From Escherichia coli (GTDB taxonomy: Bacteria > Pseudomonadota > Gammaproteobacteria > Enterobacterales > Enterobacteriaceae), in NCBI RefSeq assembly GCF_050920415.1, contig NZ_CP169309.1: a stretch of DNA of 64,000 bases; one strand, given 5' to 3'. The notes below the pieces were generated by a model, which was given only the letters and a program-made list of their open reading frames with translations, was not told the DNA's origin and did no database searches. The translations under genes and the position numbers were made by a program. The stretch's first letter is position 1; every line of letters starts with the position of its first letter. Below, one piece after another: positions 1 to 23,622 of this stretch.

Positions 1-2
1 CC

Positions 3-1857: not shown

Positions 1858-1883
1858 TTCCCCTTAGTCAAGCAAACATAAAA

Positions 1884-1920: not shown

Positions 1921-1960
1921 TTGCGAGCATATGCGCACTTTGTTCGATGGAAACACCGTG

Positions 1961-3604: not shown

Positions 3605-4269
3605 AAATTCTGATTGTTGAAGACGATACGCTGTTATTGCAGGGATTGATTCTGGCGGCGCAAACCGAAGGCTACGCGTGCGATGGCGTGACAACCGCGC
3701 GGATGGCGGAACAAAGCCTTGAGGCAGGTCATTACAGCCTGGTGGTACTGGATTTAGGGTTACCCGACGAAGATGGGCTGCATTTTCTCGCCCGAATCCG
3801 GCAGAAAAAATACACCCTGCCGGTACTGATCCTCACCGCTCGCGATACGCTGACTGACAAAATCGCCGGACTGGATGTCGGGGCTGACGATTATCTGGTG
3901 AAGCCTTTTGCGCTGGAAGAGTTACACGCCCGTATCCGCGCCCTGCTACGACGCCATAATAATCAGGGCGAAAGTGAGTTGATTGTTGGCAATCTGACGC
4001 TGAATATGGGTCGCCGTCAGGTATGGATGGACGGTGAAGAGTTGATTCTGACGCCCAAAGAATATGCTCTGCTATCACGGTTAATGCTTAAAGCAGGTAG
4101 TCCGGTGCATCGGGAAATTCTCTACAACGACATCTATAACTGGGACAATGAACCCTCGACCAACACCCTGGAAGTGCATATCCACAATCTGCGCGACAAA
4201 GTGGGCAAAGCCCGTATCCGCACCGTGCGCGGCTTTGGCTATATGCTGGTCGCGAATGAGGAAAACTAA
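3601..4269 (+). CDS. basR: Two-component response regulator BasR (PmrA), OmpR family
   Basis: 222 aa; N-terminal receiver domain ([29 protein letters not shown]) and C-terminal winged helix; operon with eptA and basS. Confidence 0.93.
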
Positions 4270-4278
4270 TTGAATCTG

Positions 4279-5370: not shown

Positions 5371-5435
5371 AGAAAGCTGCTGACCACCAGCACGCTGAAC
5401 ACGGTAGTTAAACTTTCATAAACACGGTTTTTCAT
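5346..5435 (-). CDS. pmrR: Small membrane protein PmrR (29 aa), convergent with and overlapping the 3' end of basS
   Basis: Minus-strand ORF atgaaaaaccgtgtttatgaaagtttaactaccgtg...tggtttgccacgtactga translates to MKNRVYESLTTVFSVLVVSSFLYIWFATY; below the 60-aa cutoff of the ORF track; its 3' end overlaps the last codons of basS. Confidence 0.75.
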   Translation of the reverse strand: MKNRVYESLTTVFSVLVVSSFLYIWFATY

Positions 5436-5439
5436 TGCA

Positions 5440-5465
5440 CTCTCCTCCGTTAACCTGGAGGAGAG
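5440..5465. terminator. Hairpin between basS/pmrR and proP (possible terminator for the eptA-basRS transcript)
   Basis: Inverted repeat ctctcctcc-N8-ggaggagag; no strong T-tract follows, so the function is uncertain. Confidence 0.3.
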
Positions 5466-5479
5466 TATGCGTGTCAGAG

Positions 5480-5496
5480 ATTAAGTGAACCTTAAG
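5480..5496 (-). promoter_or_regulatory. Candidate BasR (PmrA) box for pmrR
   Basis: Minus-strand reading CTTAAG-GTTCA-CTTAAT, about 45-60 nt upstream of the pmrR start codon. Confidence 0.5.
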
Positions 5497-5548
5497 AGTC
5501 AATTGTTGGCCTGATGAGACAGCATCCCATCAGGCAATTCGTTTCAGC

Positions 5549-7051: not shown

Positions 7052-7314
7052 AGCTTTCCTCGCAGAGTTGGCCCATTTCCGCAAACGCCAGAAAAATCAG
7101 CGCGACGGCCGCAAAAGGGGAGCGGGAATTGCAGGATGCAATCTCTGTAACAAGCGTAGCGGGTTTGCTTACACCCTCCGGTTAAGGAATGTACAATCAA
7201 ACCAGTTGACGCCTGAATTGGGCAGTTAATGACCTTTTTACCCTACCAGTGTTTAAATTTGTGATCAACTTCACACATGGATTTCGTTTAGGACTCATTG
7301 ATGTAACTGATTAT

Positions 7315-8193
7315 TTACGCCAAATTTACAGAGAAGATTTCCTCGACCATTGCCCCCACCAAACGCTGCGCTGAACAGAGTCGTGGCATCCCCAGCGCGA
7401 CAGTTTGCCAGCGTTGGGTCACTGACCAGCAAACGGGTTGTTTATCTGCCGTGGACCACTTTCCCAGCCAACTTAAAAAATCAGCATGATCCCCACCCGT
7501 CGGGGCGGTTGAAGAGGTAAACCACTGATGGTAATAGTGACGCGTGGTCGTTGCCGCATTAATACTCTCTGCCAGATGTTGTGTCGCTTTCTCGCGCAAA
7601 TCACCCAGCAACAACGCCACCGCTTGCGGGCTTCCTAGACGGCAGGCATCGCCAAATGCCCCCCAGCGCAGTTCCTCCAGAACGATAAAACAGCGCCCAG
7701 GCAACGACCAGGCGTTATACGCACCAGCACGCCAGCGGGTAAAAATTTGCTCACTCTGATCACCGGCCTGTACCAGTAATCCTCGTTGCGTTAACGCCTT
7801 TTCCTTCCAGCGACAACGGGCTGAAAACAACTCATACAAGGCGGCAATTTGCTGGGGGAGCTCCGGGAAAGCAGAGTGCTGGCGGTGATCCATTTTTTGC
7901 AGCAGCGCCAGATGCTGCGCGATCTGCGTCAGCGCCAGATGACCGGGATCCAGCATCGACGCCAGTTTTTCCACCAATGTCAGACGCAGGCTAAGCGGCG
8001 CATTTAACATGCCGCCGTTCGTCCATGCCTGAAGCTGCACGCGCGCAAGAAGTTCCTGCATCAGTCGTTCACGAAACTGCTGCTGATGGGCTTGTGGATG
8101 GCGGGCATCATCGCCCTGCGCCAGATCCACTAAAAAGCGGGAATGAATCGACTCCAGCACGCGACCGGGGCCGTCCAGTAACGTCTTGGTCAA
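7315..8193 (-). CDS. yjcZ: Uncharacterised protein YjcZ, translationally coupled to crfC
   Basis: 292 aa; start overlaps the crfC stop by 4 nt (ATGA); recognised as E. coli YjcZ. Confidence 0.8.
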   Translation of the reverse strand: MTKTLLDGPGRVLESIHSRFLVDLAQGDDARHPQAHQQQFRERLMQELLARVQLQAWTNGGMLNAPLSLRLTLVEKLASMLDPGHLALTQIAQHLALLQKMDHRQHSAFPELPQQIAALYELFSARCRWKEKALTQRGLLVQAGDQSEQIFTRWRAGAYNAWSLPGRCFIVLEELRWGAFGDACRLGSPQAVALLLGDLREKATQHLAESINAATTTRHYYHQWFTSSTAPTGGDHADFLSWLGKWSTADKQPVCWSVTQRWQTVALGMPRLCSAQRLVGAMVEEIFSVNLA

Positions 8194-10418
8194 TATCGTT
8201 CTGCCGTGAAAAGTGTTTGAATATCATCGCGTAACAGCTGAGCGTCGGTGTAAATCCAGCCATGAGTCATCACAGTCTGCTGCAATTGCTGCTGCATCAG
8301 CCTGACCACCGATTCATTTTGTTGACGCAGAGCCAGACTTTCGCATAAACGCGTCTGTAATTCCGTCAAACATGAAGCGAACTCAGCGAAAAAAGTATTC
8401 ATGCCTGCCGTAACAGATTCATCGACCTGCTCTGCCAGAACTTTAGCCATTTGTTGGCAATAAAGATCGACTTCTGCGCTTAATGCTCGTTGCAACGCAC
8501 TGTAATCAACCGTCTCTATCGGGGATTTCTCATTTCCCCGTCCCCAGTCGGGCTGATTCAACCAGCGCGAAAAAGTCTCACGCACAACGCCTAAACGCGT
8601 GCTCTGCTCGTCCATTGCGTCCTGGCGCGAAATGACTTCACTGAACAGCTGGCGAGTGTTGAAGTGGGGAACTGCGCCGTGAAAAACAGGAAAATGAAAC
8701 CCAGGACGAAACCCTGACTCGCTCAATTCCATTTTGACTTGTTGCTCAATGGGCCGAATAACATCGGTTAACACCCGGCAAAGAGTGGATTCAAGCTCGG
8801 CAAAACGCAGCGTAAAGTCGCGACTGATGGTGTTCTGCGCCGTCTGTAACAGTGTCTCACAGCAGGTACGAATCTCGCTTAATGACCCCGAATCATCCTG
8901 AAACAACGCGGCTAACTGGGCATTCACCGCATCTTGCTGTTGACGCAGAAAGAGGTTGGCGGAGGTCAGGGCCAGCTCGATTTCATGTTTAATCTCGCCG
9001 CTCACCTGAGCCTGATTGAGTTGAAATAGCTGCAAACTTTCTTCGATCTGGTGGATATTTTGCCGCAATTGTTCACAAGCGACGTTTAACCCGTGCGCAC
9101 GAAAATCCAGGTATTCCCGCGCCTGCTGCGCGTAATTCAACAGTTTATGCGCGGCAGATCGCAGAGCATACAACGAGGCGTTAGCGTAAGCGGCATGAAG
9201 CAACGCCTGAATTGGCTGGGCGAACAGCGAATCTTCCCACAACTGATCGGCAGCATGACGAATATGTTCGAGGTCCGCCAGGTCGGCATGACGCCAGCGC
9301 CTGCCGAGCGCGGCATGGGCAAAATCTTCCACCCAGCGTTGTTGCTCTGGCGCGGGTAACTTACCGTTGTTGGCTAACTCATTACGCGCCCGATTCGCCA
9401 GGTAGCCCCACATCGACGACACTGGAAATATCTGCTGTGGCGTAATACAGCCTTTCATCAGCGTCCCGGAAATCAGTGCCCGCACCTGGTCGGCGTCGTC
9501 ACTGTTACGATCCTGTTGATCGAACTTATTGACCAGCACATACAGCGGCACCGATTGCCCCACCGCCAAAATCGCCTCACGGACCTCTTCATCGGAGATC
9601 GATTTCAGTTGCGTATAATCCAGCACCGCCAGTACCGCCGAGGCGCGAGCCAGCTGCTGGTTAAGCATTTTTTGCAGATGCGGTTGCCCGGCTTCATTTG
9701 GCCCAGGGGTATCCAGTAACGTCAACTGACCGGGATAACTCTCCAGCCCCGCCAGATGGACAAACTCCACTTCAATCACGGGAATATGCTCAATGGCGGC
9801 GTAAGCAGAAAAAGGAAAATCGACGTCCAGCGCCTTCGCCAGTCGCACCAAATCATTCAAACTTTTCAGACAATGAAAAATAGGCTGGGCACCCAGATAA
9901 TATTTTTCGAAAGCGACGCCATTTTCGATCCGCTGCATAAGCGCACGCATATCTTTATCTATTTCCAGCACATCGGTCAGATGCTTAATATCGCAGTCAC
10001 GCAGGCGCTGTTGTAATTGTTGAATTAAACAGTCGATTGGCGCGACATGTGAAAAATGCAGTACCGGTTCTTTTTGCCCGGGCGTATGGCGAATAAGCGT
10101 CGGCAGCGCAGTCATTGGGCGATTGCGATTAGGCAGAACCTCCGTACCAACAATGGCATTAATGGTGGTTGATTTCCCTGCTTTCATAGTACCGACAATT
10201 GCCAGCACCATTTCCAGTCGGGAAATTTTACGCAACTCATTATTCAGCATCGCGTGACGTTCGGCGATATTAGGCTGACTCCAGGGTAAAGCCAGTTGTG
10301 GCGCATCGTCTCCGGGTACAGAGAGAGGCATTTTTTCTAGTAACTGCAACTGTTGGCGAGAAAGCTGTAACAGGCGTTCAGCCTCCTGACTTAACTCATA
10401 CAGGGTCTGTGTGTACAT
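8190..10418 (-). CDS. crfC: Bacterial dynamin-like GTPase CrfC (YjdA)
   Basis: 742 aa; P-loop GTMKAGKSTTINAIVG near the N-terminus, then a long helical, Q/L-rich stalk region. Confidence 0.88.
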   Translation of the reverse strand: MYTQTLYELSQEAERLLQLSRQQLQLLEKMPLSVPGDDAPQLALPWSQPNIAERHAMLNNELRKISRLEMVLAIVGTMKAGKSTTINAIVGTEVLPNRNRPMTALPTLIRHTPGQKEPVLHFSHVAPIDCLIQQLQQRLRDCDIKHLTDVLEIDKDMRALMQRIENGVAFEKYYLGAQPIFHCLKSLNDLVRLAKALDVDFPFSAYAAIEHIPVIEVEFVHLAGLESYPGQLTLLDTPGPNEAGQPHLQKMLNQQLARASAVLAVLDYTQLKSISDEEVREAILAVGQSVPLYVLVNKFDQQDRNSDDADQVRALISGTLMKGCITPQQIFPVSSMWGYLANRARNELANNGKLPAPEQQRWVEDFAHAALGRRWRHADLADLEHIRHAADQLWEDSLFAQPIQALLHAAYANASLYALRSAAHKLLNYAQQAREYLDFRAHGLNVACEQLRQNIHQIEESLQLFQLNQAQVSGEIKHEIELALTSANLFLRQQQDAVNAQLAALFQDDSGSLSEIRTCCETLLQTAQNTISRDFTLRFAELESTLCRVLTDVIRPIEQQVKMELSESGFRPGFHFPVFHGAVPHFNTRQLFSEVISRQDAMDEQSTRLGVVRETFSRWLNQPDWGRGNEKSPIETVDYSALQRALSAEVDLYCQQMAKVLAEQVDESVTAGMNTFFAEFASCLTELQTRLCESLALRQQNESVVRLMQQQLQQTVMTHGWIYTDAQLLRDDIQTLFTAERY

Positions 10419-10819
10419 AGAAAATTTTTCCTTAAAGCAAATTTTATTACTTTTATTTAGCCAGATTGTTTTTGAGTTCTGTTTTCGGCTTTTATAATTA
10501 CTGCAAGAAATAATTTTATATTTAGAGTGTTGTTTTTTATTAGAATAAATAACGTCTTCCGATACGTTTAAAACGTCAGAAAGATAAAAATATCATTTGA
10601 ATTAAAAAAAGAACAAGTAGAGCATTAACCTTATCTTAAATAATAAATGGAGGCAAAAAGATTATTTTCTTTTTGCGTTTCCTTTCAAATGAAAACGATC
10701 GTCGTCTAAAATCAGCAGTACCCCCGACAAACTCAGGGATTTTGTGTATAATTGCGGCCTTTTTCGGCAATCTGCCGTTTTTTGGCGCTTTTGCCCTGCT
10801 GACTTTTGAGGAAATCCAC

Positions 10820-11155
10820 ATGTCATTACCACACTGCCCAAAATGCAACTCCGAATACACCTACGAAGATAACGGCATGTACATCTGCCCGGAATGTGCC
10901 TACGAATGGAACGACGCAGAACCTGCACAGGAAAGCGACGAGCTGATCGTTAAAGATGCTAACGGCAATCTGCTGGCTGACGGCGACAGCGTTACCATCA
11001 TTAAAGATCTGAAGGTGAAAGGTAGCTCTTCGATGCTGAAGATCGGTACCAAAGTGAAAAACATTCGCCTGGTTGAAGGCGACCACAACATCGATTGCAA
11101 AATCGACGGTTTTGGTCCGATGAAACTGAAATCTGAGTTTGTGAAAAAGAACTGA
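10820..11155 (+). CDS. yjdM: Zinc-ribbon protein YjdM (PhnA)
   Basis: 111 aa beginning [30 protein letters not shown] (two CxxC pairs); the longer track ORF (10673..) extends through an AT-rich leader and was trimmed. Confidence 0.88.
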
Positions 11156-11187
11156 TTGTATTGCTCAATGTAATATTGGCACATGAT

Positions 11188-11335
11188 CGGTAGGCCGGAT
11201 AAGGCGCTCGCGCCGCATCCGGCTACGGTGCCGACTGCCTGATGCGACGCTCGCGCGTCTTATCAGGCCTACAAATTCTCGCACCATCCGGCAACGGTGC
11301 CTAATGCGACGCTTACCGAGTCTTATCAGCCCCCG
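11188..11335. repeat. REP/BIME cluster (about 3 REP palindromes)
   Basis: Repeated taggccggataaggcg...cgccgcatccggc and gcctgatgcgacgc...gtcttatcaggcctac units between yjdM and yjdN. Confidence 0.75.
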
Positions 11336-11394
11336 CTCATCTGTATAATTTTCGAACTACACTTAACTGGCTTCTCTTAACTGAGGTCACCATC

Positions 11395-11838
11395 ATGCCG
11401 TTAAGTCCCTACCTCTCTTTTGCTGGTAACTGTTCCGATGCGATTGCCTATTATCAACGCACGTTGGGCGCGGAACTGCTTTATAAAATCAGCTTCGGCG
11501 AAATGCCGAAATCAGCGCAGGACAGCGCCGAGAACTGCCCTTCCGGTATGCAATTTCCCGATACCGCTATCGCCCATGCTAACGTGCGTATTGCCGGAAG
11601 CGATATCATGATGAGCGATGCCATACCGTCAGGAAAAGCCAGCTACTCCGGTTTTACACTGGTACTCGATTCGCAACAGGTCGAAGAAGGAAAACGCTGG
11701 TTTGATAACCTTGCTGCTAACGGAAAAATCGAAATGGCCTGGCAGGAAACTTTCTGGGCGCATGGCTTCGGCAAAGTCACCGATAAATTTGGCGTGCCGT
11801 GGATGATTAATGTCGTCAAACAACAACCAACGCACTAA
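11395..11838 (+). CDS. yjdN: Glyoxalase/bleomycin-resistance-fold protein YjdN (PhnB)
   Basis: 147 aa; recognised as E. coli YjdN/PhnB. Confidence 0.82.
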   Translation: MPLSPYLSFAGNCSDAIAYYQRTLGAELLYKISFGEMPKSAQDSAENCPSGMQFPDTAIAHANVRIAGSDIMMSDAIPSGKASYSGFTLVLDSQQVEEGKRWFDNLAANGKIEMAWQETFWAHGFGKVTDKFGVPWMINVVKQQPTH

Positions 11839-11893
11839 CCCGCCGGGAGGCCCGCCCTCCCGCACTGTCATCGAATTCCCGTTAACTCTTCAT

Positions 11894-11932
11894 CTGTTAG
11901 TCACTTTTAGTTAACAAAATCGTCACGATAAT
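11894..11932 (+). promoter_or_regulatory. PhoB-dependent phnC promoter (Pho box plus -10)
   Basis: Three phased 11-bp repeats ctgttagtcac / ttttagttaac / aaaatcgtcac followed by gataat, about 40 bp upstream of the phnC ATG; matches Pho-box architecture. Confidence 0.55.
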
Positions 11933-11970
11933 CCGCCACGATGGAGCCACTTTTTTAGGGAGGCTGCATC

Positions 11971-12759
11971 ATGCAAACGATTATCCGTGTCGAGAAGCTC
12001 GCCAAAACCTTCAATCAGCATCAGGCGCTGCATGCGGTTGATCTGAACATTCATCACGGTGAAATGGTGGCTCTGCTTGGGCCGTCCGGTTCCGGCAAAT
12101 CCACCCTTTTACGTCATTTAAGCGGTTTGATTACCGGCGATAAATCTGCCGGTAGCCATATCGAGCTGCTGGGCCGCACAGTCCAACGCGAAGGCCGCCT
12201 GGCCCGCGATATCCGCAAAAGCCGCGCCAACACCGGCTACATCTTCCAACAATTCAACCTGGTGAATCGCCTGAGCGTACTGGAGAACGTGCTGATTGGC
12301 GCGCTCGGCAGCACGCCATTCTGGCGCACCTGTTTTAGCTACTTCACCCGCGAGCAGAAACAGCGCGCGTTACAGGCGCTGACCCGCGTTGGCATGGTGC
12401 ACTTTGCCCATCAGCGCGTTTCCACCCTCTCCGGCGGACAGCAGCAGCGTGTGGCGATTGCCCGTGCGCTGATGCAGCAGGCGAAGGTGATTCTGGCCGA
12501 TGAACCCATCGCCTCGCTGGACCCGGAATCGGCGCGCATCGTGATGGACACCCTGCGCGACATTAACCAGAACGACGGCATTACCGTGGTCGTCACGCTG
12601 CATCAGGTGGATTACGCCCTGCGCTACTGCGAACGCATCGTCGCCCTGCGCCAGGGGCACGTCTTCTACGACGGCAGCAGCCAACAGTTTGATAACGAAC
12701 GTTTTGACCATCTCTACCGCAGCATTAACCGCGTCGAAGAGAACGCGAAAGCTGCCTGA
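11971..12759 (+). CDS. phnC: Phosphonate ABC transporter ATP-binding protein
   Basis: 262 aa; Walker [13 protein letters not shown] signature LSGGQQQR, Walker B ILADEP. Confidence 0.93.
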
Positions 12760-12783
12760 CATCCCCATCATTGAGGAAAACGA

Positions 12784-13800
12784 ATGAACGCTAAGATAAT
12801 TGCCTCGCTGGCCTTCACCAGCATGTTCAGCCTCAGCACCCTGTTCAGCCCGGCGCACGCCGAAGAGCAGGAAAAGGCGCTGAATTTCGGCATTATTTCA
12901 ACGGAATCACAGCAAAACCTGAAACCGCAATGGACGCCTTTCCTGCAAGATATGGAGAAGAAACTGGGCGTAAAGGTCAACGCCTTCTTTGCTCCGGACT
13001 ACGCGGGCATTATCCAGGGGATGCGCTTCAACAAAGTGGATATCGCCTGGTACGGCAACCTGTCGGCGATGGAAGCGGTGGATCGCGCCAACGGTCAGGT
13101 CTTCGCCCAGACGGTCGCGGCGGATGGATCGCCGGGTTACTGGAGCGTGTTGATCGTCAACAAAGATAGCCCGATCAACAACCTGAACGATCTGCTGGCC
13201 AAGCGTAAAGATCTCACCTTCGGCAATGGCGATCCTAACTCCACCTCTGGCTTCCTCGTCCCCGGCTACTACGTCTTCGCCAAAAACAATATCTCCGCCA
13301 GCGACTTCAAGCGCACCGTCAACGCCGGGCATGAAACCAACGCCCTCGCCGTCGCCAACAAGCAGGTGGATGTCGCCACCAACAACACTGAAAACCTCGA
13401 CAAGCTGAAAACCTCCGCGCCGGAGAAGCTGAAAGAACTGAAGGTGATCTGGAAATCGCCGCTGATCCCAGGCGATCCGATCGTCTGGCGCAAAAATCTG
13501 TCCGAAACCACCAAAGACAAGATCTACGACTTCTTTATGAACTACGGCAAAACGCCGGAAGAGAAAGCGGTGCTGGAACGCCTGGGCTGGGCGCCGTTCC
13601 GCGCCTCCAGCGACCTGCAACTGGTGCCAATTCGCCAGCTCGCACTGTTTAAAGAGATGCAAAGCGTGAAGGACAACAAAGGGCTGAACGAACAGGACAA
13701 GCTCGCGAAAACCACCGAGATACAGGCGCAACTGGATGACCTGGATCGCCTGAACAACGCGTTAAGCGCGATGAGTTCGGTGAGTAAAGCGGTGCAGTAA
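12784..13800 (+). CDS. phnD: Phosphonate ABC transporter periplasmic binding protein
   Basis: 338 aa with an N-terminal signal peptide (MNAKIIASLAFTSMFSLSTLFSPAHA). Confidence 0.92.
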   Translation: MNAKIIASLAFTSMFSLSTLFSPAHAEEQEKALNFGIISTESQQNLKPQWTPFLQDMEKKLGVKVNAFFAPDYAGIIQGMRFNKVDIAWYGNLSAMEAVDRANGQVFAQTVAADGSPGYWSVLIVNKDSPINNLNDLLAKRKDLTFGNGDPNSTSGFLVPGYYVFAKNNISASDFKRTVNAGHETNALAVANKQVDVATNNTENLDKLKTSAPEKLKELKVIWKSPLIPGDPIVWRKNLSETTKDKIYDFFMNYGKTPEEKAVLERLGWAPFRASSDLQLVPIRQLALFKEMQSVKDNKGLNEQDKLAKTTEIQAQLDDLDRLNNALSAMSSVSKAVQ

Positions 13801-13809
13801 TGTGCTCGA

Positions 13810-13912
13810 TCGGTCCCCTCTCCCTTGAGGGAGAGGGTTAGGGTGAGGGGGGAAATACGCACGCTGATGCCCTCACCCCGGCCCTCTCCCACAGGGAGAG
13901 GGAGAAAACATT
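13810..13912. repeat. GC-rich composite palindromic repeat (two ~40-bp imperfect palindromes), copy 1
   Basis: ggtcccctctcccttgagggagagggttagggtgagggg ... ccctcaccccggccctctcccacagggagagggagaaaac in the phnD-phnE spacer; closely related copy at 19165..19278. Confidence 0.7.
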
Positions 13913-13926
13913 AAACGGAGCCAAAC

Positions 13927-14706
13927 ATGCAAACCATCACCATCGCCCCACCCAAGCGCAGCTGGTTCTCGCTTCTGAGCTGGGCCATTGTTCTCGCCGT
14001 GCTGGTCGTCTCGTGGCAGGGCGCGGAAATGGCCCCGCTCACGCTGATTAAAGACGGCGGCAACATGGCGACGTTCGCCGCCGACTTCTTCCCGCCCGAT
14101 TTCAGCCAGTGGCAGGATTACCTCACCGAAATGGCCGTCACGCTGCAAATCGCCGTCTGGGGCACTGCGCTGGCAGTCGTTCTCTCCATCCCCTTCGGCC
14201 TGATGAGCGCCGAAAACCTGGTGCCGTGGTGGGTTTACCAGCCCGTTCGCCGCCTGATGGACGCCTGCCGCGCCATTAACGAGATGGTCTTCGCCATGCT
14301 GTTCGTGGTCGCCGTCGGTCTCGGTCCGTTCGCTGGCGTACTGGCGCTGTTTATCCACACCACCGGCGTGCTCTCCAAACTGCTTTCCGAAGCGGTGGAA
14401 GCGATTGAACCCGGCCCGGTGGAAGGCATTCGCGCCACCGGTGCCAATAAGCTCGAAGAGATCCTCTACGGCGTGCTGCCGCAGGTCATGCCGCTACTGA
14501 TTTCCTACTCACTCTATCGTTTCGAATCCAACGTGCGTTCCGCCACCGTTGTTGGCATGGTCGGCGCTGGCGGAATTGGCGTCACGCTGTGGGAAGCGAT
14601 TCGCGGTTTCCAGTTCCAGCAAACCTGCGCCCTGATGGTGCTGATTATCGTCACGGTCAGCCTGCTGGATTTCCTCTCTCAACGGTTGCGTAAGCACTTT
14701 ATCTGA
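13927..14706 (+). CDS. phnE: Phosphonate ABC transporter permease (intact reading frame)
   Basis: 259-aa uninterrupted ORF beginning [28 protein letters not shown] with permease topology; GGAG RBS 8 nt upstream. Confidence 0.88.
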
Positions 14707-14726
14707 TAAGCGAGGCATTGATATCT

Positions 14727-15452
14727 ATGCACTTGTCTACACCTCCGACCAGCTACCCAACACGCTATCAGGAGATAGCCGCAAAACTTGAGCAGGAGCT
14801 TCGTCAACACTACCGCTGCGGCGACTATCTTCCCGCCGAGCAGCAACTGGCAGCGCGCTTTGAGGTGAATCGCCACACCCTGCGCCGTGCCATCGACCAA
14901 CTGGTGGAAAAAGGCTGGGTACAGCGCCGTCAGGGCATCGGCGTACTGGTGCTGATGCGCCCGTTCGATTACCCGCTCAACGCCCAGGCGCGTTTTAGCC
15001 AGAACCTGCTGGATCAGGGTAGCCATCCCACCAGCGAAAAACTGCTGTCCGTGCTGCGCCCGGCCTCCGGTCACGTCGCTGACGCGCTGGGGATAACCGA
15101 GGGCGAGAACGTTATCCACCTGCGCACCCTGCGCCGGGTCAACGGCGTCGCGCTCTGTTTAATCGACCACTACTTTGCGGACCTCACTCTCTGGCCGACG
15201 CTGCAACGCTTCGACAGCGGCTCGCTGCACGATTTTTTGCACGAGCAAACGGGAATTGCGCTGCGCCGCAGCCAGACGCGGATCAGCGCCCGCCGCGCCC
15301 AGGCCAAAGAGTGCCAGCGTCTTGAAATTCCGAATATGTCGCCGCTGCTGTGCGTGCGCACCCTTAACCACCGTGACGGTGAAAGCAGCCCGGCGGAGTA
15401 CTCCGTCAGCCTGACGCGCGCCGACATGATTGAATTCACCATGGAGCACTGA
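14727..15452 (+). CDS. phnF: GntR-family repressor of the phn operon
   Basis: 241 aa from ATG (MHLSTPPTSYPTRYQEIAAKLEQ); N-terminal GntR HTH, UTRA-like C-terminus. Confidence 0.9.
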   Translation: MHLSTPPTSYPTRYQEIAAKLEQELRQHYRCGDYLPAEQQLAARFEVNRHTLRRAIDQLVEKGWVQRRQGIGVLVLMRPFDYPLNAQARFSQNLLDQGSHPTSEKLLSVLRPASGHVADALGITEGENVIHLRTLRRVNGVALCLIDHYFADLTLWPTLQRFDSGSLHDFLHEQTGIALRRSQTRISARRAQAKECQRLEIPNMSPLLCVRTLNHRDGESSPAEYSVSLTRADMIEFTMEH

Positions 15453-15905
15453 ATGCACGCAGATACCGCGACCCGCCAGCACTGGATGTCCGTGCTGGCG
15501 CACAGCCAACCGGCTGAACTGGCTAACCGCCTTAAAGCGCTAAACATCACCACCGACTATGACATTATCCGCGCCGCCGAAACCGGCCTGGTACAGATTC
15601 AGGCGCGAATGGGTGGCACCGGCGAACGCTTTTTTGCTGGCGACGCTACGCTCACCCGCGCCGCTGTACGCCTTACTGACGGCACGCTCGGCTACAGCTG
15701 GGTGCTGGGGCGCGACAAACAGCACGCCGAACGCTGCGCGCTGATTGACGCGCTGATGCAGCAATCTCGCCACTTTCAAAACTTATCAGAAACCCTTATT
15801 GCCCCGCTGGACGCTGACCGTATGGCACGCATTGCCGCACGCCAGGCCGAAGTGAACGCCAGTCGGGTCGACTTCTTTACGATGGTTCGCGGAGACAACG
15901 CATGA
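15453..15905 (+). CDS. phnG: C-P lyase core complex subunit PhnG
   Basis: 150 aa; position and sequence in the phnGHIJ block. Confidence 0.9.
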
Positions 15906-16486
15906 CCCTGGAAACCGCTTTTATGCTTCCCGTGCAGGATGCCCAGCACAGTTTTCGTCGCCTGTTAAAGGCAATGAGCGAGCCGGGCGTGATTGTCGCC
16001 CTGCATCAGCTCAAACGCGGCTGGCAGCCGCTGAATATCGCCACCACCAGCGTGCTGCTGACGCTGGCCGATAACGACACGCCGGTGTGGCTTTCCGCGC
16101 CATTAAGTAACGATATCGTCAGCCAGAGCCTGCGTTTTCATACCAACGCCCCGCTGGTCAATCAGCCGGAACAGGCGACCTTCGCAGTGACGGATGAGGC
16201 GATTGCCAGCGAGCAGCTCAACGCCCTTTCCACCGGCACCGCCGTTGCGCCGGAAGCCGGTGCGACGTTGATTTTACAGGTCACCAGCCTGAGCGGCGGA
16301 CGCATGCTGCGCCTCACCGGCGCGGGTATTGCCGAAGAACGGATGATCGCCCCGCAACTGCCGGAGTGCATTCTGCACGAACTCACCGAGCGCCCGCACC
16401 CGTTCCCGCTCGGCATCGACCTGATCCTGACCTGCGGCGAGCGCCTGCTGGCTATTCCGCGAACCACTCATGTGGAGGTGTGCTGA
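15902..16486 (+). CDS. phnH: C-P lyase core complex subunit PhnH
   Basis: 194 aa; overlaps the phnG stop (ATGA). Confidence 0.9.
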
Positions 16487-17550
16487 TGTACGTTGCCGTG
16501 AAAGGGGGCGAGAAGGCGATCGACGCCGCCCACGCCCTGCAAGAGAGCCGACGCCGGGTCGATACCGATTTGCCTGAACTGAGCGTCGCCCAGATTGAAC
16601 AGCAGCTTAATCTCGCGGTGGATCGCGTGATGACCGAAGGCGGCATTGCCGACCGCGAACTGGCCGCACTGGCGCTGAAACAGGCCAGTGGCGATAACGT
16701 TGAAGCAATTTTCCTGCTGCGCGCCTACCGCACGACGCTGGCAAAACTGGCGGTAAGCGAGCCGCTCGACACCACCGAGATGCGTCTCGAACGCCGTATC
16801 TCCGCCGTTTATAAAGACATTCCTGGCGGCCAGCTGCTTGGCCCGACCTACGACTACACCCATCGCCTGCTCGATTTCACCCTGCTGGCGAATGGCGAAG
16901 CGCCGACGCTGACCACCACCGACAGCGAGCAAGCCCCATCGCCGCACGTTTTCAGCCTGCTGGCGCGTCAGGGGCTGGCGAAGTTTGAAGAGGATAGCGG
17001 CGCACAGCCGGATGACATCACCCGTACACCGCCGGTTTACCCTTGCTCTCGCGCCTCCCGCCTGCAACAGCTCATGCGCGGCGACGAAGGCTACTTGCTG
17101 GCGCTGGCCTACTCCACCCAGCGTGGTTACGGACGCAATCACCCGTTCGCAGGCGAAATCCGCAGTGGCTATATCGACGTGTCTATTGTGCCGGAAGAGC
17201 TGGGATTTGCGGTGAACGTCGGTGAACTGCTGATGACCGAGTGTGAAATGGTTAACGGTTTTATCGACCAGCCGGATGAGCCGCCGCACTTCACGCGCGG
17301 CTACGGGCTGGTGTTTGGCATGAGCGAGCGCAAAGCGATGGCAATGGCGCTGGTTGACCGCGCTCTACAAGCCCCGGAGTACGGCGAGCACGCGACAGGC
17401 CCGGCGCAGGATGAAGAGTTCGTGCTGGCGCATGCCGACAACGTCGAAGCCGCAGGCTTTGTCTCGCACCTCAAACTCCCGCACTACGTCGATTTCCAGG
17501 CCGAGCTGGAGCTACTCAAACGTCTGCAACAGGAGCAGAACCATGGCTAA
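16486..17550 (+). CDS. phnI: C-P lyase subunit PhnI (ribosyl-triphosphate-forming nucleosidase)
   Basis: 354 aa from [13 protein letters not shown]; start overlaps the phnH stop by 1 nt (TGATG); the longer upstream track extension was rejected. Confidence 0.9.
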   Translation: MYVAVKGGEKAIDAAHALQESRRRVDTDLPELSVAQIEQQLNLAVDRVMTEGGIADRELAALALKQASGDNVEAIFLLRAYRTTLAKLAVSEPLDTTEMRLERRISAVYKDIPGGQLLGPTYDYTHRLLDFTLLANGEAPTLTTTDSEQAPSPHVFSLLARQGLAKFEEDSGAQPDDITRTPPVYPCSRASRLQQLMRGDEGYLLALAYSTQRGYGRNHPFAGEIRSGYIDVSIVPEELGFAVNVGELLMTECEMVNGFIDQPDEPPHFTRGYGLVFGMSERKAMAMALVDRALQAPEYGEHATGPAQDEEFVLAHADNVEAAGFVSHLKLPHYVDFQAELELLKRLQQEQNHG

Positions 17551-18388
17551 TCTGAGCGGCTACAACTTTGCGTACCTCGACGAGCAGACCAAACGTATGA
17601 TCCGCCGCGCCATCTTAAAAGCGGTGGCGATCCCCGGTTATCAGGTGCCGTTTGGCGGGCGCGAGATGCCGATGCCATACGGCTGGGGAACCGGCGGCAT
17701 ACAGCTTACCGCCAGTGTGATTGGCGAAAGCGACGTGTTGAAGGTGATTGACCAGGGCGCGGATGACACCACCAACGCCGTATCAATTCGCAACTTTTTC
17801 AAGCGCGTGACCGGGGTAAACACCACTGAACGTACGGATGATGCGACGCTTATCCAGACGCGCCACCGCATCCCCGAAACGCCGCTGACCGAAGATCAGA
17901 TCATTATCTTCCAGGTGCCGATCCCGGAACCGCTGCGCTTTATCGAGCCGCGCGAAACGGAGACCCGCACCATGCACGCGCTGGAGGAGTACGGCGTGAT
18001 GCAGGTGAAACTGTATGAAGATATCGCCCGCTTCGGTCATATCGCCACCACCTACGCCTATCCGGTGAAGGTGAACGGACGCTACGTCATGGACCCATCG
18101 CCGATCCCGAAATTTGATAACCCGAAAATGGACATGATGCCCGCCCTGCAACTGTTCGGCGCGGGGCGTGAGAAGCGTATTTATGCGGTGCCGCCGTTTA
18201 CCCGCGTGGAAAGCCTCGATTTCGACGATCATCCGTTCACCGTTCAGCAGTGGGATGAACCCTGCGCCATCTGCGGATCGACCCACAGCTATCTCGATGA
18301 AGTGGTGCTGGATGACGCCGGAAACCGCATGTTTGTCTGCTCCGATACCGATTATTGCCGCCAACAGAGCGAGGCGAGAAGCCAATGA
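17543..18388 (+). CDS. phnJ: C-P lyase radical-SAM subunit PhnJ
   Basis: 281 aa from MANLSGYNFAYLDEQTKRMIRRAILKAVAIPGYQVPFGGREMPMPYGWGTGG; C-terminal Cys cluster CAICGSTHSYLDE...CSDTDYC. Confidence 0.92.
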   Translation: MANLSGYNFAYLDEQTKRMIRRAILKAVAIPGYQVPFGGREMPMPYGWGTGGIQLTASVIGESDVLKVIDQGADDTTNAVSIRNFFKRVTGVNTTERTDDATLIQTRHRIPETPLTEDQIIIFQVPIPEPLRFIEPRETETRTMHALEEYGVMQVKLYEDIARFGHIATTYAYPVKVNGRYVMDPSPIPKFDNPKMDMMPALQLFGAGREKRIYAVPPFTRVESLDFDDHPFTVQQWDEPCAICGSTHSYLDEVVLDDAGNRMFVCSDTDYCRQQSEARSQ

Positions 18389-19143
18389 ATCAACCGTTAC
18401 TTTCGGTCAATAACCTGACCCACCTTTACGCGCCGGGCAAAGGCTTCAGCGATGTCTCTTTTGATTTATGGCCGGGGGAAGTGCTGGGCATTGTCGGGGA
18501 ATCCGGTTCCGGGAAGACCACGCTGCTGAAATCAATCTCCGCCCGTCTGACACCGCAACAGGGGGAGATTCACTATGAAAACCGTTCCCTCTATGGCATG
18601 AGCGAGGCCGACCGCCGTCGCCTGCTGCGCACCGAATGGGGCGTGGTGCATCAGCATCCGCTCGACGGCCTGCGCCGTCAGGTGTCAGCAGGCGGCAATA
18701 TCGGCGAACGGCTGATGGCGACCGGGGCGCGTCATTACGGCGATATTCGCGCCACCGCGCAGAAGTGGCTGGAGGAGGTGGAGATTCCCTCCAACCGTAT
18801 CGACGACCTGCCGACCACTTTTTCCGGCGGTATGCAGCAGCGTTTGCAGATTGCCCGCAACCTGGTGACGCATCCGAAGCTGGTGTTTATGGATGAACCG
18901 ACCGGCGGGCTGGATGTATCGGTACAGGCGCGCCTGCTCGATCTGCTGCGCGGTCTGGTGGTGGAGCTGAATCTGGCGGTGGTGATTGTCACCCATGATT
19001 TAGGCGTCGCCCGCCTGCTGGCGGACCGTTTGCTGGTGATGAAGCAGGGGCAGGTGGTGGAGAGTGGGTTAACCGACCGCGTACTCGACGACCCGCATCA
19101 TCCGTATACCCAGTTGCTGGTGTCATCGGTTTTGCAGAATTGA
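18385..19143 (+). CDS. phnK: C-P lyase associated ABC-type ATPase PhnK
   Basis: 252 aa from MNQPLLSVNNLTHLY; Walker A GESGSGKTT, signature FSGGMQQR. Confidence 0.92.
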   Translation: MNQPLLSVNNLTHLYAPGKGFSDVSFDLWPGEVLGIVGESGSGKTTLLKSISARLTPQQGEIHYENRSLYGMSEADRRRLLRTEWGVVHQHPLDGLRRQVSAGGNIGERLMATGARHYGDIRATAQKWLEEVEIPSNRIDDLPTTFSGGMQQRLQIARNLVTHPKLVFMDEPTGGLDVSVQARLLDLLRGLVVELNLAVVIVTHDLGVARLLADRLLVMKQGQVVESGLTDRVLDDPHHPYTQLLVSSVLQN

Positions 19144-19164
19144 GTTGCAACACTTTGCGCACTG

Positions 19165-19278
19165 ATCCCCTCACCCCGGCCCTCTCCCGGAGGGAGAGGG
19201 AGAAAACCGGCGCAATATTCAACACCGTGCACAAGCGGTCCCCTCGCCCCTTTGGGGAGAGGGTTAGGGTGAGGGGCA
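19165..19278. repeat. GC-rich composite palindromic repeat, copy 2 (inverted relative to copy 1)
   Basis: cccctcaccccggccctctcccggagggagagggagaaaacc ... ggtcccctcgcccctttggggagagggttagggtgagggg in the phnK-phnL spacer. Confidence 0.7.
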
Positions 19279-19320
19279 ATGTGCGCACCGCTCCCAAACA
19301 TGCGAACCACGAGGCGAAAA

Positions 19321-20001
19321 ATGATTAACGTACAAAACGTCAGTAAAACCTTCATCCTGCACCAGCAAAACGGCGTGCGCCTGCCCGTCTTACAACGCGC
19401 CTCGCTCACCGTCAACGCGGGCGAATGCGTGGTGCTCCACGGTCACTCCGGCAGCGGCAAATCAACTCTGCTACGCTCGCTGTACGCCAACTATCTGCCC
19501 GACGAAGGGCAAATCCAGATCAAACACGGTGACGAATGGGTAGACCTGGTCACCGCGCCAACGCGCAAAGTGGTGGAAATCCGCAAAACCACTGTCGGCT
19601 GGGTAAGCCAGTTTCTGCGCGTCATCCCGCGTATTTCGGCACTGGAAGTGGTGATGCAGCCGCTGCTCGATACCGGCGTTTCGCGTGATGCCTGCGCCGC
19701 TAAAGCCGCGCGTCTGCTCACCCGCCTGAACGTGCCGGAACGTCTGTGGCACCTGGCGCCATCGACCTTCTCCGGCGGCGAACAGCAGCGCGTCAACATC
19801 GCGCGCGGCTTTATCATCGATTACCCCATTCTGCTGCTCGACGAACCTACTGCCTCGCTGGACGCCAAAAACAGCGCCGCGGTGGTGGAACTGATCCGCG
19901 AAGCTAAAACCCGCGGCGCAGCCATCGTCGGCATCTTCCACGACGAAGCCGTACGCAATGACGTCGCCGACCGCCTGCACCCAATGGGAGCCTCTGCATG
20001 A
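19321..20001 (+). CDS. phnL: C-P lyase associated ABC-type ATPase PhnL
   Basis: 226 aa from [25 protein letters not shown]; Walker [10 protein letters not shown], signature FSGGEQQR. Confidence 0.9.
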
Positions 20002-21134
20002 TTATCAATAACGTCAAACTGGTGCTGGAAAACGAAGTGGTACACGGTTCGCTGGAGGTGCAGGACGGCGAAATTCGCGCCTTTGCCGAAAGCCAGAGCC
20101 GCCTGCCAGAAGCGATGGACGGCGAAGGTGGCTGGCTGCTGCCGGGACTGATTGAGCTGCATACCGATAATCTGGATAAATTCTTCACCCCGCGCCCGAA
20201 AGTGGACTGGCCCGCCCACTCGGCGATGAGCAGCCACGATGCGCTGATGGTGGCGAGCGGCATCACCACCGTGCTGGACGCCGTGGCGATTGGCGACGTG
20301 CGCGACGGCGGCGATCGGCTGGAGAATCTGGAAAAGATGATCAACGCCATCGAAGAGACGCAGAAACGCGGCGTCAACCGCGCCGAGCACCGCCTGCACC
20401 TGCGCTGCGAACTGCCGCATCACACTACGCTGCCGCTGTTTGAAAAACTGGTGCAGCGCGAGCCGGTCACGCTGGTGTCGCTAATGGACCACTCACCGGG
20501 CCAGCGCCAGTTCGCCAATCGCGAGAAGTATCGCGAATATTACCAGGGCAAATACTCGCTCACCGATGCGCAGATGCAGCAGTACGAAGAGGAACAACTG
20601 GCGCTTGCCGCACGCTGGTCGCAGCCGAATCGCGAAACCATCGCCGCAATGTGCCGCGCGCGACAAATTGCCCTCGCCAGCCACGATGACGCCACGCACG
20701 CGCACGTTGCCGAATCCCACCAGCTTGGCAGCGTAATCGCCGAATTTCCCACCACGTTCGAAGCGGCGGAAGCTTCGCGCAAGCATGGCATGAATGTATT
20801 GATGGGCGCGCCGAATATTGTGCGCGGCGGTTCGCACTCCGGCAACGTGGCGGCCAGTGAACTGGCACAGCTTGGTCTGCTGGATATCCTCTCTTCCGAC
20901 TACTACCCCGCCAGCCTGCTCGATGCGGCATTCCGCGTCGCCGATGACGAGAGCAACCGCTTTACGCTGCCGCAGGCGGTGAAGCTGGTGACTAAAAATC
21001 CGGCGCAGGCGCTTAATCTTCAGGATCGCGGGGTGATTGGCGAGGGCAAACGCGCCGACCTGGTGCTGGCGCATCGCAAGGGCAACCACATTCATATCGA
21101 TCACGTCTGGCGTCAGGGTAAAAGGGTGTTCTGA
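19998..21134 (+). CDS. phnM: Amidohydrolase-family PhnM (ribosyl-triphosphate diphosphohydrolase)
   Basis: 378 aa; overlaps the phnL stop (ATGA). Confidence 0.9.
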
Positions 21135-21691
21135 TGACGGGAAAACTGATTTGGTTAATGGGGGCCTCTGGCTCCGGAAAAGACAGTCTGTTGACGGAAC
21201 TCCGCCAGCGGGAACAAACTCAGCTACTGGTAGCGCATCGCTACATCACGCGCGCCGCCAGCGCCGGAAGTGAAAACCATATCGCCCTGAGCGAGCAGGA
21301 GTTTTTTACCCGCGCGGGGCAGAACCTTCTGGCCTTAAGCTGGCACGCCAACGGCCTGTATTATGGCATCGGCGTCGAGATTGACCTCTGGCTGCACGCT
21401 GGATTTGACGTGGTGGTCAACGGCTCACGCGCCCATCTACCGCAGGCGCGGGCGCGCTATCAATCGGCGCTGCTGCCCGTTTGTTTACAGGTTTCGCCAG
21501 AGATCCTGCGCCAGCGCCTGGAAAACCGTGGTCGTGAAAATGCCAGTGAAATTAACGCCCGGCTGGCGCGCGCTGCCCGCTATACTCCTCAGGATTGTCT
21601 TACGCTCAATAATGACGGCAGCCTGCGCCAGTCGGTCGACAAGCTGCTGACGCTGATTGATCTGAAGGAGAAACACCATGCCTGCTTGTGA
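21134..21691 (+). CDS. phnN: Ribose 1,5-bisphosphate phosphokinase PhnN
   Basis: 185 aa; P-loop [12 protein letters not shown]; guanylate-kinase-like. Confidence 0.9.
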
Positions 21692-22112
21692 GCTTCGCCC
21701 GGCTACGCAGTACGACACCGACGCAGTTTACGCGCTGATTTGTGAGCTAAAACAGGCGGAGTTTGACCACCACGCGTTTCGCGTGGGCTTTAACGCCAAT
21801 CTGCGCGACCCGAACATGCGCTACCATCTGGCGCTGCTGGATGGCGAAGTTGTCGGCATGATCGGCCTGCATTTGCAGTTTCATCTGCATCATGTCAACT
21901 GGATCGGCGAAATTCAGGAACTGGTGGTGATGCCGCAGGCGCGCGGTCTGAACGTCGGCAGTAAATTACTGGCATGGGCCGAAGAAGAAGCCCGCCAGGC
22001 CGGGGCCGAAATGACCGAGCTTTCCACCAACGTCAAGCGCCACGACGCGCACCGTTTCTATCTGCGCGAAGGCTACGAGCAGAGCCACTTCCGCTTCACC
22101 AAGGCGCTGTAA
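21678..22112 (+). CDS. phnO: Aminoalkylphosphonate N-acetyltransferase PhnO (GNAT)
   Basis: 144 aa; GNAT-like acetyl-CoA region; overlaps phnN by 14 nt. Confidence 0.88.
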
Positions 22113-22113
22113 C

Positions 22114-22872
22114 ATGAGCCTGACCCTCACACTTACTGGCACTGGCGGCGCACAGGGTGTTCCCGCATGGGGCTGTGAGTGCGCGGCCTGCGCCAGAGCG
22201 CGGCGCTCACCGCAGTATCGCCGCCAGCCATGCAGCGGCGTCGTGAAGTTTAACGACGCGATCACCCTGATCGACGCCGGGCTGCACGATCTCGCCGATC
22301 GCTGGTCGCCCGGATCGTTCCAGCAGTTTTTGCTGACGCACTACCATATGGATCACGTGCAGGGGCTGTTTCCGCTGCGCTGGGGCGTGGGCGATTCGAT
22401 CCCGGTCTACGGCCCGCCGGATGAACAGGGCTGCGACGATCTGTTTAAACATCCGGGCCTGCTTGATTTCAGCCACACGGTGGAGCCATTTGTGGTGTTT
22501 GATTTGCAGGGATTGCAGGTGACGCCGCTACCGCTTAACCATTCGAAACTCACTTTCGGCTATTTACTGGAAACGGCGCACAATCGGGTGGCGTGGCTGT
22601 CTGACACCGCGGGCCTGCCAGAAAACACGCTGAAATTTTTACTCAATAATCATCCGCAGGTGATGGTGATTGATTGCAGCCATCCGCCGCGCGAGGATGT
22701 GCCGCGTAATCACTGCGATTTAAACACCGTGCTGGCGCTGAATGAGATTATCCGTTCACCGCGCGTGATTCTGACGCACATCAGCCACCAGTTTGATGCG
22801 TGGCTGATGGAAAATACGCTGCCATCGGGGGTTGAGGCGGGGTTTGATGGGATGGAGATTGGGGTGGAGTGA
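22114..22872 (+). CDS. phnP: Phosphoribosyl cyclic phosphodiesterase PhnP (metallo-beta-lactamase fold)
   Basis: 252 aa; HxHxDH motif ([11 protein letters not shown]). Confidence 0.9.
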
Positions 22873-22906
22873 TGGGTGAGGGGCGATGCCTGCTCTAGAC
22901 TCAACA

Positions 22907-23236
22907 TCACCGCCCATACTCATCTTCCATTCTCCGCTCTTCATCTTCTAGCTGCCGACGCTCCTGATCCAGCTGGCGCTGGCGATCGTCCAGCTGCTTG
23001 CGGCGATCTTCAAACTGGCGGCGGCGATCGTCATATTGTCTGCGCCGATCGTCGTTCACTTCACGCTGCCAGCCGTCGTCGCGCGAATCTTCATAGTCTC
23101 GCCCACGGTCAGGGTTATAAGCATCGTTAATCGCCTGCTGAATATTGCCAATGGTGTCGTCGATAATATCGGCCTGGGCCGGAACGGTGGACAGCGTGAG
23201 CAGGGTGAATAAAATAAATAGCGGAAAACGTTTCAT
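22907..23236 (-). CDS. yjdP: Small secreted protein YjdP with a highly charged D/E/R/Q repeat region
   Basis: 109 aa; signal peptide MKRFPLFILFTLLTLSTVPAQA followed by DDRRRQYDDRRRQFEDRRKQLDDRQRQLDQERRQLEDEERR. Confidence 0.75.
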   Translation of the reverse strand: MKRFPLFILFTLLTLSTVPAQADIIDDTIGNIQQAINDAYNPDRGRDYEDSRDDGWQREVNDDRRRQYDDRRRQFEDRRKQLDDRQRQLDQERRQLEDEERRMEDEYGR

Positions 23237-23304
23237 TAGCCAACCTCAAAAAGAAACTCTATCCACATTAGTCATTACTCATCCATGCAAGTAGTGGATG
23301 AATC

Positions 23305-23622
23305 TCAATTTTTCCGCTGCTCTATTGCCGTAATCGCCTCCACGCGTTGTTGATGACGACCGCCTTCGTACTGCGCGCCCAGCCACGCATCCACAATCAT
23401 TTTTGCCAGTTCGAGGCCAACCACTCGTGAACCAAAAGCCAGTGCAACTTCACTGGCGTAATGCGGATAATCAGTGCGCTCTGACGACCTGGTTTCTTTA
23501 TCAATCCCCTCACTCATTGACTATGAATAAAAGGCTGGCACAGCAACGCAGAATCCTGCGGTGCCAGCGACATGACCGCCCATTGCTCCGGTACGTTTTT
23601 TAATAAGAAACACCGGTTGCAT
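23305..23622 (-). pseudogene. rpiB: Remnant of ribose-5-phosphate isomerase B (internally deleted, 5' region degenerate)
   Basis: 70-aa ORF MSEGIDKETRSSERTDYPHYASEVALAFGSRVVGLELAKMIVDAWLGAQYEGGRHQQRVEAITAIEQRKN matches the RpiB N-proximal segment (WSSERTDYPHYASQVALA) and C-terminus as recalled, but lacks the central part with the catalytic Cys; an in-frame stop lies 2 codons upstream. Confidence 0.55.

Follow-up and report, generated by a model that had tools for sequence, protein, structure and literature searches.

What occupies the only two sizeable gaps of an otherwise compact operon, how it came to be there, and whether it serves the operon are the questions raised by the phn (phosphonate) genes of Escherichia coli contig NZ_CP169309.1 (assembly GCF_050920415.1), within a stretch of 64,000 nucleotides (nt) referred to here as the window. 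The junctions of the operon measure 24 nt (phnC-phnD), 126 nt (phnD-phnE, hereafter D-E), 20 nt (phnE-phnF), 0 (phnF-phnG), -4 (phnG-phnH), -1 (phnH-phnI), -8 (phnI-phnJ), -4 (phnJ-phnK), 177 nt (phnK-phnL, hereafter K-L), -4 (phnL-phnM), -1 (phnM-phnN), -14 (phnN-phnO) and 1 nt (phnO-phnP). As the first-pass annotation had stated, only D-E and K-L are sizeable, the remaining junctions ranging from -14 to +24 nt. By their sequence, both of these spacers hold composites of a known enterobacterial repeat, BoxC, alias the “potential intrastrand triplex” (PIT) element or TMECO. The positions are collected in Table 1, in which gene identities follow the annotation of NZ_CP169399.1, a record that is 100% identical, and collinearity with K-12.

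The presence of four GC-rich palindromic units, two per spacer (U1 to U4), was confirmed by a search of the window with a 22-nt pattern, GGGAGAGGGNNNGGGTGAGGGG, which extends across two G blocks and was allowed up to three mismatches. The places of the four units are its only matches in 64 kb, and none arose in 100 dinucleotide-preserving shuffles; a hairpin pattern gave the same outcome. All four units fit the published consensus, CCCTCNCCC-N3-6-GGGNGAGGG-N3-GGGNGAGGG with an optional final [G/T/C/-] (Holder et al. 2015, PMC4666352), when this is applied as a regular expression. Additionally, the sequence of U2 recurs exactly as K-12 TMECO nos. 1 and 4, and that of U4 as nos. 7, 11 and 15, while U1 differs from no. 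2 in its last base alone (Table 1 of Holder et al. 2015). The family is dispersed: a search of 5,426 complete E. coli genomes with the 126-nt D-E spacer found it in 4,507 of them, at 24,577 places (median 5 in each genome), of which only 24 are on plasmids. Across Enterobacteriaceae, its copy number extends from 0 in Salmonella to as many as 143 in Enterobacter asburiae (Holder et al. 2015, PMC4666352). A chance GC-rich palindrome, or an operator or attenuator specific to phn rather than a repeat family, would account for the local symmetry and for that alone. It is refuted by the shuffles (4 places observed against 0 in 100), by the thousands of paralogous copies in E. coli and by the fact that most E. 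coli lack the units in their phn operon, and its likelihood is practically nil.

Table 1. Features of the phn operon and its repeat-bearing junctions, in coordinates of the window
Feature	Position	Strand	Remarks
phnD, periplasmic phosphonate-binding protein	12784..13800	+	TAA stop 13798-13800; open reading frame list, NZ_CP169399.1 annotation, K-12 collinearity
phnD-phnE intercistronic spacer	13801..13926	+	126 nt, nearly all repeat
Tail-to-tail BoxC composite	13802..13909 (approx.)	.	A flank tgtgctcgatcggtc, A core, shared tail linker, B core, B flank agaaaac
U1, BoxC/TMECO type A core	13816-13850	+	CCCTCTCCCTTGAGGGAGAGGGTTAGGGTGAGGGG; TTA second loop, perfect stem; fits consensus
U2, BoxC/TMECO type B core	13869-13902	-	CCCTCTCCCTGTGGGAGAGGGCCGGGGTGAGGGC; CCG second loop; fits consensus
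phnE permease	13927..14706	+	259 aa, intact; open reading frame list, NZ_CP169399.1 annotation
phnK	18385..19143	+	TGA stop 19141-19143
phnK-phnL intercistronic spacer	19144..19320	+	177 nt
Head-to-head BoxC composite	19156..19287 (approx.)	.	Inverted ends TGCGCACTGAT.../...CAATGTGCGCA; B core, 40-nt head linker, A core
U3, BoxC/TMECO type B core	19167-19200	-	CCCTCTCCCTCCGGGAGAGGGCCGGGGTGAGGGG; fits consensus
U4, BoxC/TMECO type A “mm” core	19241-19276	+	CCCTCGCCCCTTTGGGGAGAGGGTTAGGGTGAGGGG; single stem mismatch; fits consensus
phnL	19321..20001	+	226 aa; gagg Shine-Dalgarno motif ~7 nt upstream; start agrees with K-12
Remnant of third BoxC site	22874..22884	+	GGGTGAGGGG; just downstream of phnP stop codon; last G block kept
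G-quadruplex motifs	13829-13852, 13870-13890, 19167-19188, 19254-19276		In four BoxC units

The family had previously been guessed to be Box C or RSA-like. The first name is correct, as judged by the TMECO consensus and the K-12 copies. The second finds no support: no RSA consensus was compared, and the full fit to BoxC makes membership of RSA unnecessary. Both ERIC/IRU and RSA elements are likewise intergenic, imperfectly palindromic and often transcribed, but they are longer (127 nt for ERIC and ~150 nt for RSA, against 56 bp for BoxC) and are not known to be related in sequence. The ERIC2 primer sequence, used as a proxy for ERIC, gave no match with up to three mismatches. The REP consensus GCC(G/T)GATGCG(G/A)CG...CTTATC(A/C)GGCCTAC is likewise without a match in either spacer at that tolerance. 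Its only matches in the window are two perfect ones, a direct pair 113 bp apart on the minus strand (34038-34074 and 34151-34187), and ordinary REPs are therefore present in this strain although its phn junctions carry BoxC. A scan of positions 11000-23500 against Rfam at a permissive E-value assigned no family to the spacers and returned only sub-threshold, chance microRNA matches (E 0.5-1).

In K-12, five sites hold two inverted TMECOs, always one of type A and one of type B (Holder et al. 2015, PMC4666352). The same pairing is found in both phn spacers, where U1 and U4 are of type A and U2 and U3 of type B, the two types lying on opposite strands. At D-E, A(+) precedes B(-), their G-rich tails point inward, and both units share one tail linker of 18-20 nt. 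At K-L the order is reversed, B(-) preceding A(+), the tails point outward, and their outer flanks form the inverted ends TGCGCACTGAT and CAATGTGCGCA; the inverted repeat has its arms at 19156-19188 and 19255-19287. The mirrored arrangement described in the first-pass annotation is thus borne out and, since D-E is tail-to-tail and K-L head-to-head, represents two phases of one alternating A/B mosaic, which resembles the organisation of BIMEs. The kinship of the two sites as members of a single repeat family also holds, their units aligning with BoxC copies elsewhere: the D-E composite is 93.6% identical over 109 nt to the hrpB-mrcB composite of K-12, and the 40-nt head linker of K-L is conserved in the K-12 composite downstream of phnP and in Pseudocitrobacter faecalis.

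Conservation exceeds the core of ~35 nt. An alignment of 29 cores and their surroundings, drawn from the window, K-12, Pseudocitrobacter, Leclercia, Kluyvera and Cedecea, shows gtgcNcNatcggtc beside the C-rich half of type A units and g(g)aaatgNgcgcac beside their G-rich half, with gttttct and catcagcgcgcac as the flanks of type B units. These flanks recur in the window, K-12, Pseudocitrobacter, Leclercia and Kluyvera and bring the unit to ~55-60 nt, in agreement with the 56-bp BoxC of the older literature. Accordingly, the first-pass annotation had placed both sites correctly, but its extents need revision. The composites, at ~13802-13909 and ~19156-19287, reach beyond the cores, and the K-L spacer ends at 19320 because the start codon of phnL is the ATG at 19321 rather than the first one in frame, at 19279.

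BoxC came to notice as a palindromic repeat of E. coli in the 1990s (Bergler 1992; Bachellier 1999) and was rediscovered in 2000 as the PIT element (Hoyne and Maher 2000, 2002). The name TMECO was introduced by Holder et al. (2015, PMC4666352). The phn composites show no essential difference from the published description, sharing with it the consensus, the TTA and CCG variants, the inverted A and B pairs, a strictly intergenic location and collapse to a single hairpin. Bachellier is also said to have described, in 1999, a composite element containing BoxC. Both phn copies are intergenic, multi-copy and non-coding and, lying inside a polycistronic operon, are necessarily transcribed. Unlike the window, K-12 is free of BoxC at D-E and K-L, which is why these sites are missing from its TMECO list; its phn region has a copy only downstream of phnP. 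Family, arrangement and instability are therefore already known, and the finding is real but ordinary. Its importance is limited by the fact that the repeat was described in the early 1990s and characterised between 2000 and 2015.

What the strains of E. coli add is the comparison of alleles at the two junctions. Counts were taken from the coverage classes of flank-anchored megablast searches of the 5,426 complete genomes. BoxC-derived alleles of any kind occupy D-E in 1,338 genomes, of which 352 have the full BoxC pair and, by subtraction, ~986 (~18%) a collapsed single hairpin; the full pair occupies K-L in 545. The remaining genomes, K-12 among them, show the two-piece pattern of the REP allele (~75% at D-E and ~90% at K-L). 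The K-12 spacers hold REP pairs, and both kinds of allele agree only in the stop codon and in the ~15-20 nt immediately ahead of the start codon; at D-E, only the stop codon and the Shine-Dalgarno region ggagccaaacATG are shared across alleles. A homologous linker (tgatgcc) common to the REP and BoxC alleles was considered and rejected, as this string is part of the REP unit and the remainder cannot be aligned. Four D-E alleles are represented among the fetched examples, namely the full pair (LSC52), the collapsed hairpin (ECO8855), the REP pair (K-12, Z247) and an internally deleted REP pair (AH65), and two alleles among those for K-L.

Joint types were obtained with a 5.7-kb query over both spacers in 59 evenly spaced chromosomes, the classes being inferred from match span and checked against fetched examples. 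REP occupies both sites in 41 chromosomes. A collapsed D-E is combined with REP at K-L in eight and with BoxC at K-L in four, a full BoxC D-E with REP at K-L in another four, and REP at D-E with BoxC at K-L in one. The configuration of the window, full BoxC at D-E with BoxC at K-L, is rare, with a single chromosome. As all four combinations of BoxC and REP occur, the sites assort independently and form no simple haplotype, and linkage of the two BoxC alleles is rejected. An empty spacer was found at neither site in these 59 chromosomes. The modest point added here, judged from match patterns and the fetched examples, is that strains differ in carrying BoxC or REP at these two phn junctions, the families alternating there. 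The literature covered, which leaves Bachellier 1997 and 1999 and Makino 1991 outside, makes no mention of this alternation, and it is not claimed as new. The first-pass annotation had suggested that the elements could set differential mRNA stability or polarity and had counted their absence from most E. coli phn operons, with no effect on expression, against this suggestion. They are indeed absent from most, but the places are filled by REP pairs and not left as empty spacers.

The relatives of E. coli supply the empty junction. A scan for PhnK with one genome per species gave 80 loci, 16 of them in Enterobacteriaceae, and in these 16 the K-L gap is bimodal. It measures 7-18 nt in eight (e.g. 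Citrobacter sp. FP75, Leclercia and several Enterobacter), and the operon therefore works without an element there; in the others it measures 55-298 nt and contains either BoxC or REP-like palindromes typical of the species. In all nine Enterobacteriaceae loci where the D-E spacer was readable, it is occupied by REP or BoxC. At D-E, the BoxC pair is flipped relative to the window in Leclercia and oriented as in the window in Kluyvera, and E. asburiae has a collapsed copy. Such varied fillings across genera indicate that the junctions have been colonised repeatedly. The overlapping junctions from phnF-phnG to phnJ-phnK and from phnL-phnM to phnN-phnO are essentially invariant in these Enterobacteriaceae loci. 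In a few genera, the phnE-phnF junction (99-118 nt; Cedecea, Enterobacter sp. R1) and the phnO-phnP junction (94-109 nt) are also expanded. Since relatives and most E. coli have D-E and K-L junctions that are either short or filled with something else, the composites are, on this allele comparison, insertions, as had been supposed from the compactness of the operon.

The composites are also unstable. The collapsed D-E allele (ECO8855) is an exact deletion between two AGGGAGAGGG direct repeats and matches the “palindromic effect” already published, together with the instability of TMECOs among strains, by Holder et al. (2015, PMC4666352). The composites thus decay by deletions that join internal direct repeats and leave collapsed hairpins and remnants. 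A third phn site, just downstream of the phnP stop codon, is reduced to such a remnant in the window, while K-12 has a BoxC composite of ~112 bp there, consisting of TMECO no. 22 and a degenerate partner; this is listed as 3' of the phn operon and is the only phn copy named (Holder et al. 2015 supplement, PMC4666352). Amplification occurs as well. In P. faecalis DSM 27453, BoxC is found at D-E, K-L and downstream of phnP. Its D-E array reads A, tail linker, degenerate B, head linker, A, tail linker, B, and its K-L spacer of 298 nt (locus 7759-8058) contains a 65-nt unit, the CCCTCTCCC hairpin with a head linker, three times between B and A units. BoxC mosaics therefore expand as well as collapse, and the full, collapsed and replaced alleles at D-E, the remnant downstream of phnP and the amplification in P. 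faecalis show the locus instability expected of the family. The phn operon of this strain (locus 1-11613) is 92-94% identical in nucleotides to that of the window, far above its own flanks (74-78%), which suggests that the operon moved between genera together with its BoxC alleles; the phn operons of other genera are ~77-85% identical to the window.

Taken together, the phn composites are probably best explained as mainly selfish or neutral, deletion-prone repeats at permissive junctions, with a REP-like action on the RNA as their most likely incidental effect. The elements would persist where their insertion is harmless, that is, only at junctions where they do not break overlapping, translationally coupled genes. 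The incidental effect is suggested by analogy with REP elements and with the protective 3' structures of ABC-transporter operons. Transcribed within the phnC-P mRNA, a hairpin without a U-tract would present a barrier to 3'-to-5' exonucleases and, on the same analogy, would break translational coupling. The phnCD segment would thereby be favoured over phnE, and phnE-K over phnL-P, by a route other than transcription termination. Among E. coli ABC-transporter operons whose segments decay at different rates, it is the substrate-binding gene that is stabilised, and protective 3' structures occur in most gene pairs with a stabilised 5' segment (Dar and Sorek, PMC5927463). The position of the D-E hairpin, after the binding-protein gene, fits this pattern, and the BoxC composites may act as such a REP-like barrier to mRNA decay.

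The very stable stem-loops that had been expected in the transcript are indeed predicted. Each spacer folds as RNA into one long, nearly perfect hairpin, of -70.2 kcal/mol at D-E (z -6.5 against 200 shuffles) and -87.6 kcal/mol at K-L (z -5.5). The K-12 REP pairs are predicted to fold alike (-50.7 kcal/mol, z -3.75, at D-E; -60.7 kcal/mol, z -6.5, at K-L), and the collapsed D-E allele reaches -24.3 kcal/mol. The predicted hairpins begin 13-14 nt past the stop codons and end 12-24 nt ahead of the Shine-Dalgarno sequences, which remain unpaired in the folds of both spacers. Neither a terminator-like site (a hairpin with a T-run) nor a promoter-like site was found on the plus strand of 13801-13926 or 19144-19320.

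These folds could also be read as the product of selection, a strong hairpin of any family being kept after phnD and phnK to set differential mRNA stability and translation, with the binding-protein segment stabilised, on the model of malE-malF. Every E. coli allele seen has a stable predicted hairpin (in kcal/mol, -70 and -88 for BoxC, -24 for the collapsed allele, -51 and -61 for REP). The regular presence of REP or BoxC at D-E in the readable Enterobacteriaceae loci and the match to the ABC-transporter pattern (PMC5927463) agree with such a role, as does the lack of empty phn spacers among the 59 chromosomes when it is set against two other BoxC loci of K-12, hrpB-mrcB and lldD-trmL. There, about one third of the sampled genomes fall into lower-coverage classes, whose fetched representatives are BoxC-free and either empty or remnant. 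However, the location of the direct repeats leaves the collapsed allele with its hairpin automatically, so selection need not be invoked for it, and the fixation of the REP pairs may be merely historical. The eight Enterobacteriaceae loci with a short K-L junction likewise speak against a required hairpin, and the earlier tests of PIT elements, as far as Holder et al. (2015, PMC4666352) relay them, gave no promoter or terminator activity and no effect on RNA polymerase. Selection for intercistronic hairpins is, on balance, unlikely.

The explanation by mainly selfish or neutral repeats has difficulties of its own. REP elements have associated transposases (RAYTs), but no mobilising enzyme is known for BoxC. 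The contrast between 0 of 59 empty phn spacers and the empty or remnant alleles at the two other BoxC loci is compatible with selection for some hairpin. As for the RNA effect, the null results for promoter and terminator activity, in the form relayed by Holder et al. (2015, PMC4666352), neither support nor exclude a barrier to exonucleases.

Function could instead reside in the DNA, with an intrastrand purine-motif triplex, a cruciform or a G-quadruplex forming in single-stranded or supercoiled DNA and serving as a pause site for replication or recombination or as a protein-binding site, and with adaptive variability as a result. Exact block symmetry for G.G-C, A.A-T and T.A-T triplets, as required for a purine-motif intrastrand triplex, is present in all four units, and these are the sole places in the 64 kb with a canonical G-quadruplex motif, (G3+ N1-7)x4, on either strand. 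As single strands, oligonucleotides of types A and B, whether their stem is perfect or has the mismatch, fold into stable triplexes in vitro, and TMECO loci exceed control loci in variability (Holder et al. 2015, PMC4666352). All three phn sites show instability in the form of deletions, remnants and amplifications. Nevertheless, the same authors observed no triplex by in vivo dimethyl sulphate footprinting or, in duplexes, by circular dichroism and nuclear magnetic resonance, and, as relayed there, the earlier tests gave no effect on replication in vivo. Slippage between short direct repeats in palindromes explains the instability equally well, and instability is a property rather than evidence of function. 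A role of this kind is accordingly quite improbable.

The likeness of BoxC to REP/BIME elements, for which malE-malF and hisJ-hisQ are the paradigm (Stern 1984), extends to inverted pairs with linkers, mosaic organisation, changes in copy number and a long transcript hairpin, and in most E. coli these elements occupy the very two phn junctions considered here. The two families differ in that their sequences are unrelated and in that BoxC has a third G block, with its potential for triplexes and G-quadruplexes, which REP lacks. At both phn junctions, replacement between the families is wholesale, from the stop codon to the Shine-Dalgarno site. BoxC mosaics and REP/BIME pairs might thus be interchangeable occupants of the same niches, whether because any exonuclease-blocking hairpin is selected or because insertion or gene conversion follows a common route aimed at one structural feature, a proposal that must be regarded as doubtful. 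If it were true, BoxC would gain a testable role after ~30 years without a known function. Alternation of BoxC and REP as a general rule is rejected, as the alternative alleles at hrpB-mrcB and lldD-trmL are empty, remnant or otherwise interrupted and not REP. In the lldD-trmL spacer of E. coli O145 RM12275 (~159-193), the BoxC pair is interrupted by a palindrome of ~35 bp, ctgtctcttgatcagatctcctgatcaagagacag, which we take to resemble two IS50 inside ends head to head.

The residual value of the finding lies in a natural allelic series at two positions of one inducible operon. It comprises the full BoxC pair, the collapsed hairpin and the REP pair, with the empty junction available in relatives, and is a ready system for the study of possible BoxC effects at the level of RNA, such as on the stability of mRNA segments and the coupling of translation, or of DNA, such as on the rate of deletion and the pausing of replication. 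For annotators, the phn spacers should be regarded as hypervariable, such that differences of sequence there are no sign of regulatory divergence.

Other features of the region concern the strain itself. The phnE gene is intact in the window, while the K-12 annotation at the same place is that of a pseudogene, phnE1; from its reading frame, the strain should possess a functional phosphonate permease. Between yjdM and yjdN lies a REP/BIME cluster (11193-11269, with degenerate copies to ~11330) that exceeds the gathering score of Rfam naRNA4 (CssrE) with 99 bits. In K-12 the cluster at this place is ~300 bp longer, which indicates copy-number polymorphism of the REP array. The phn side of the region (11187-23104) is 94-95% identical to K-12, and the adjacent rdcAB side (7553-11290) 97%. 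The window is matched at no less than 99% by only two to three of the 5,426 E. coli genomes, NZ_CP169399.1 reaching 100%. The low identity of phn, together with so few close matches, suggests either a rare, divergent lineage as the source of the window or a divergent phn haplotype within it.

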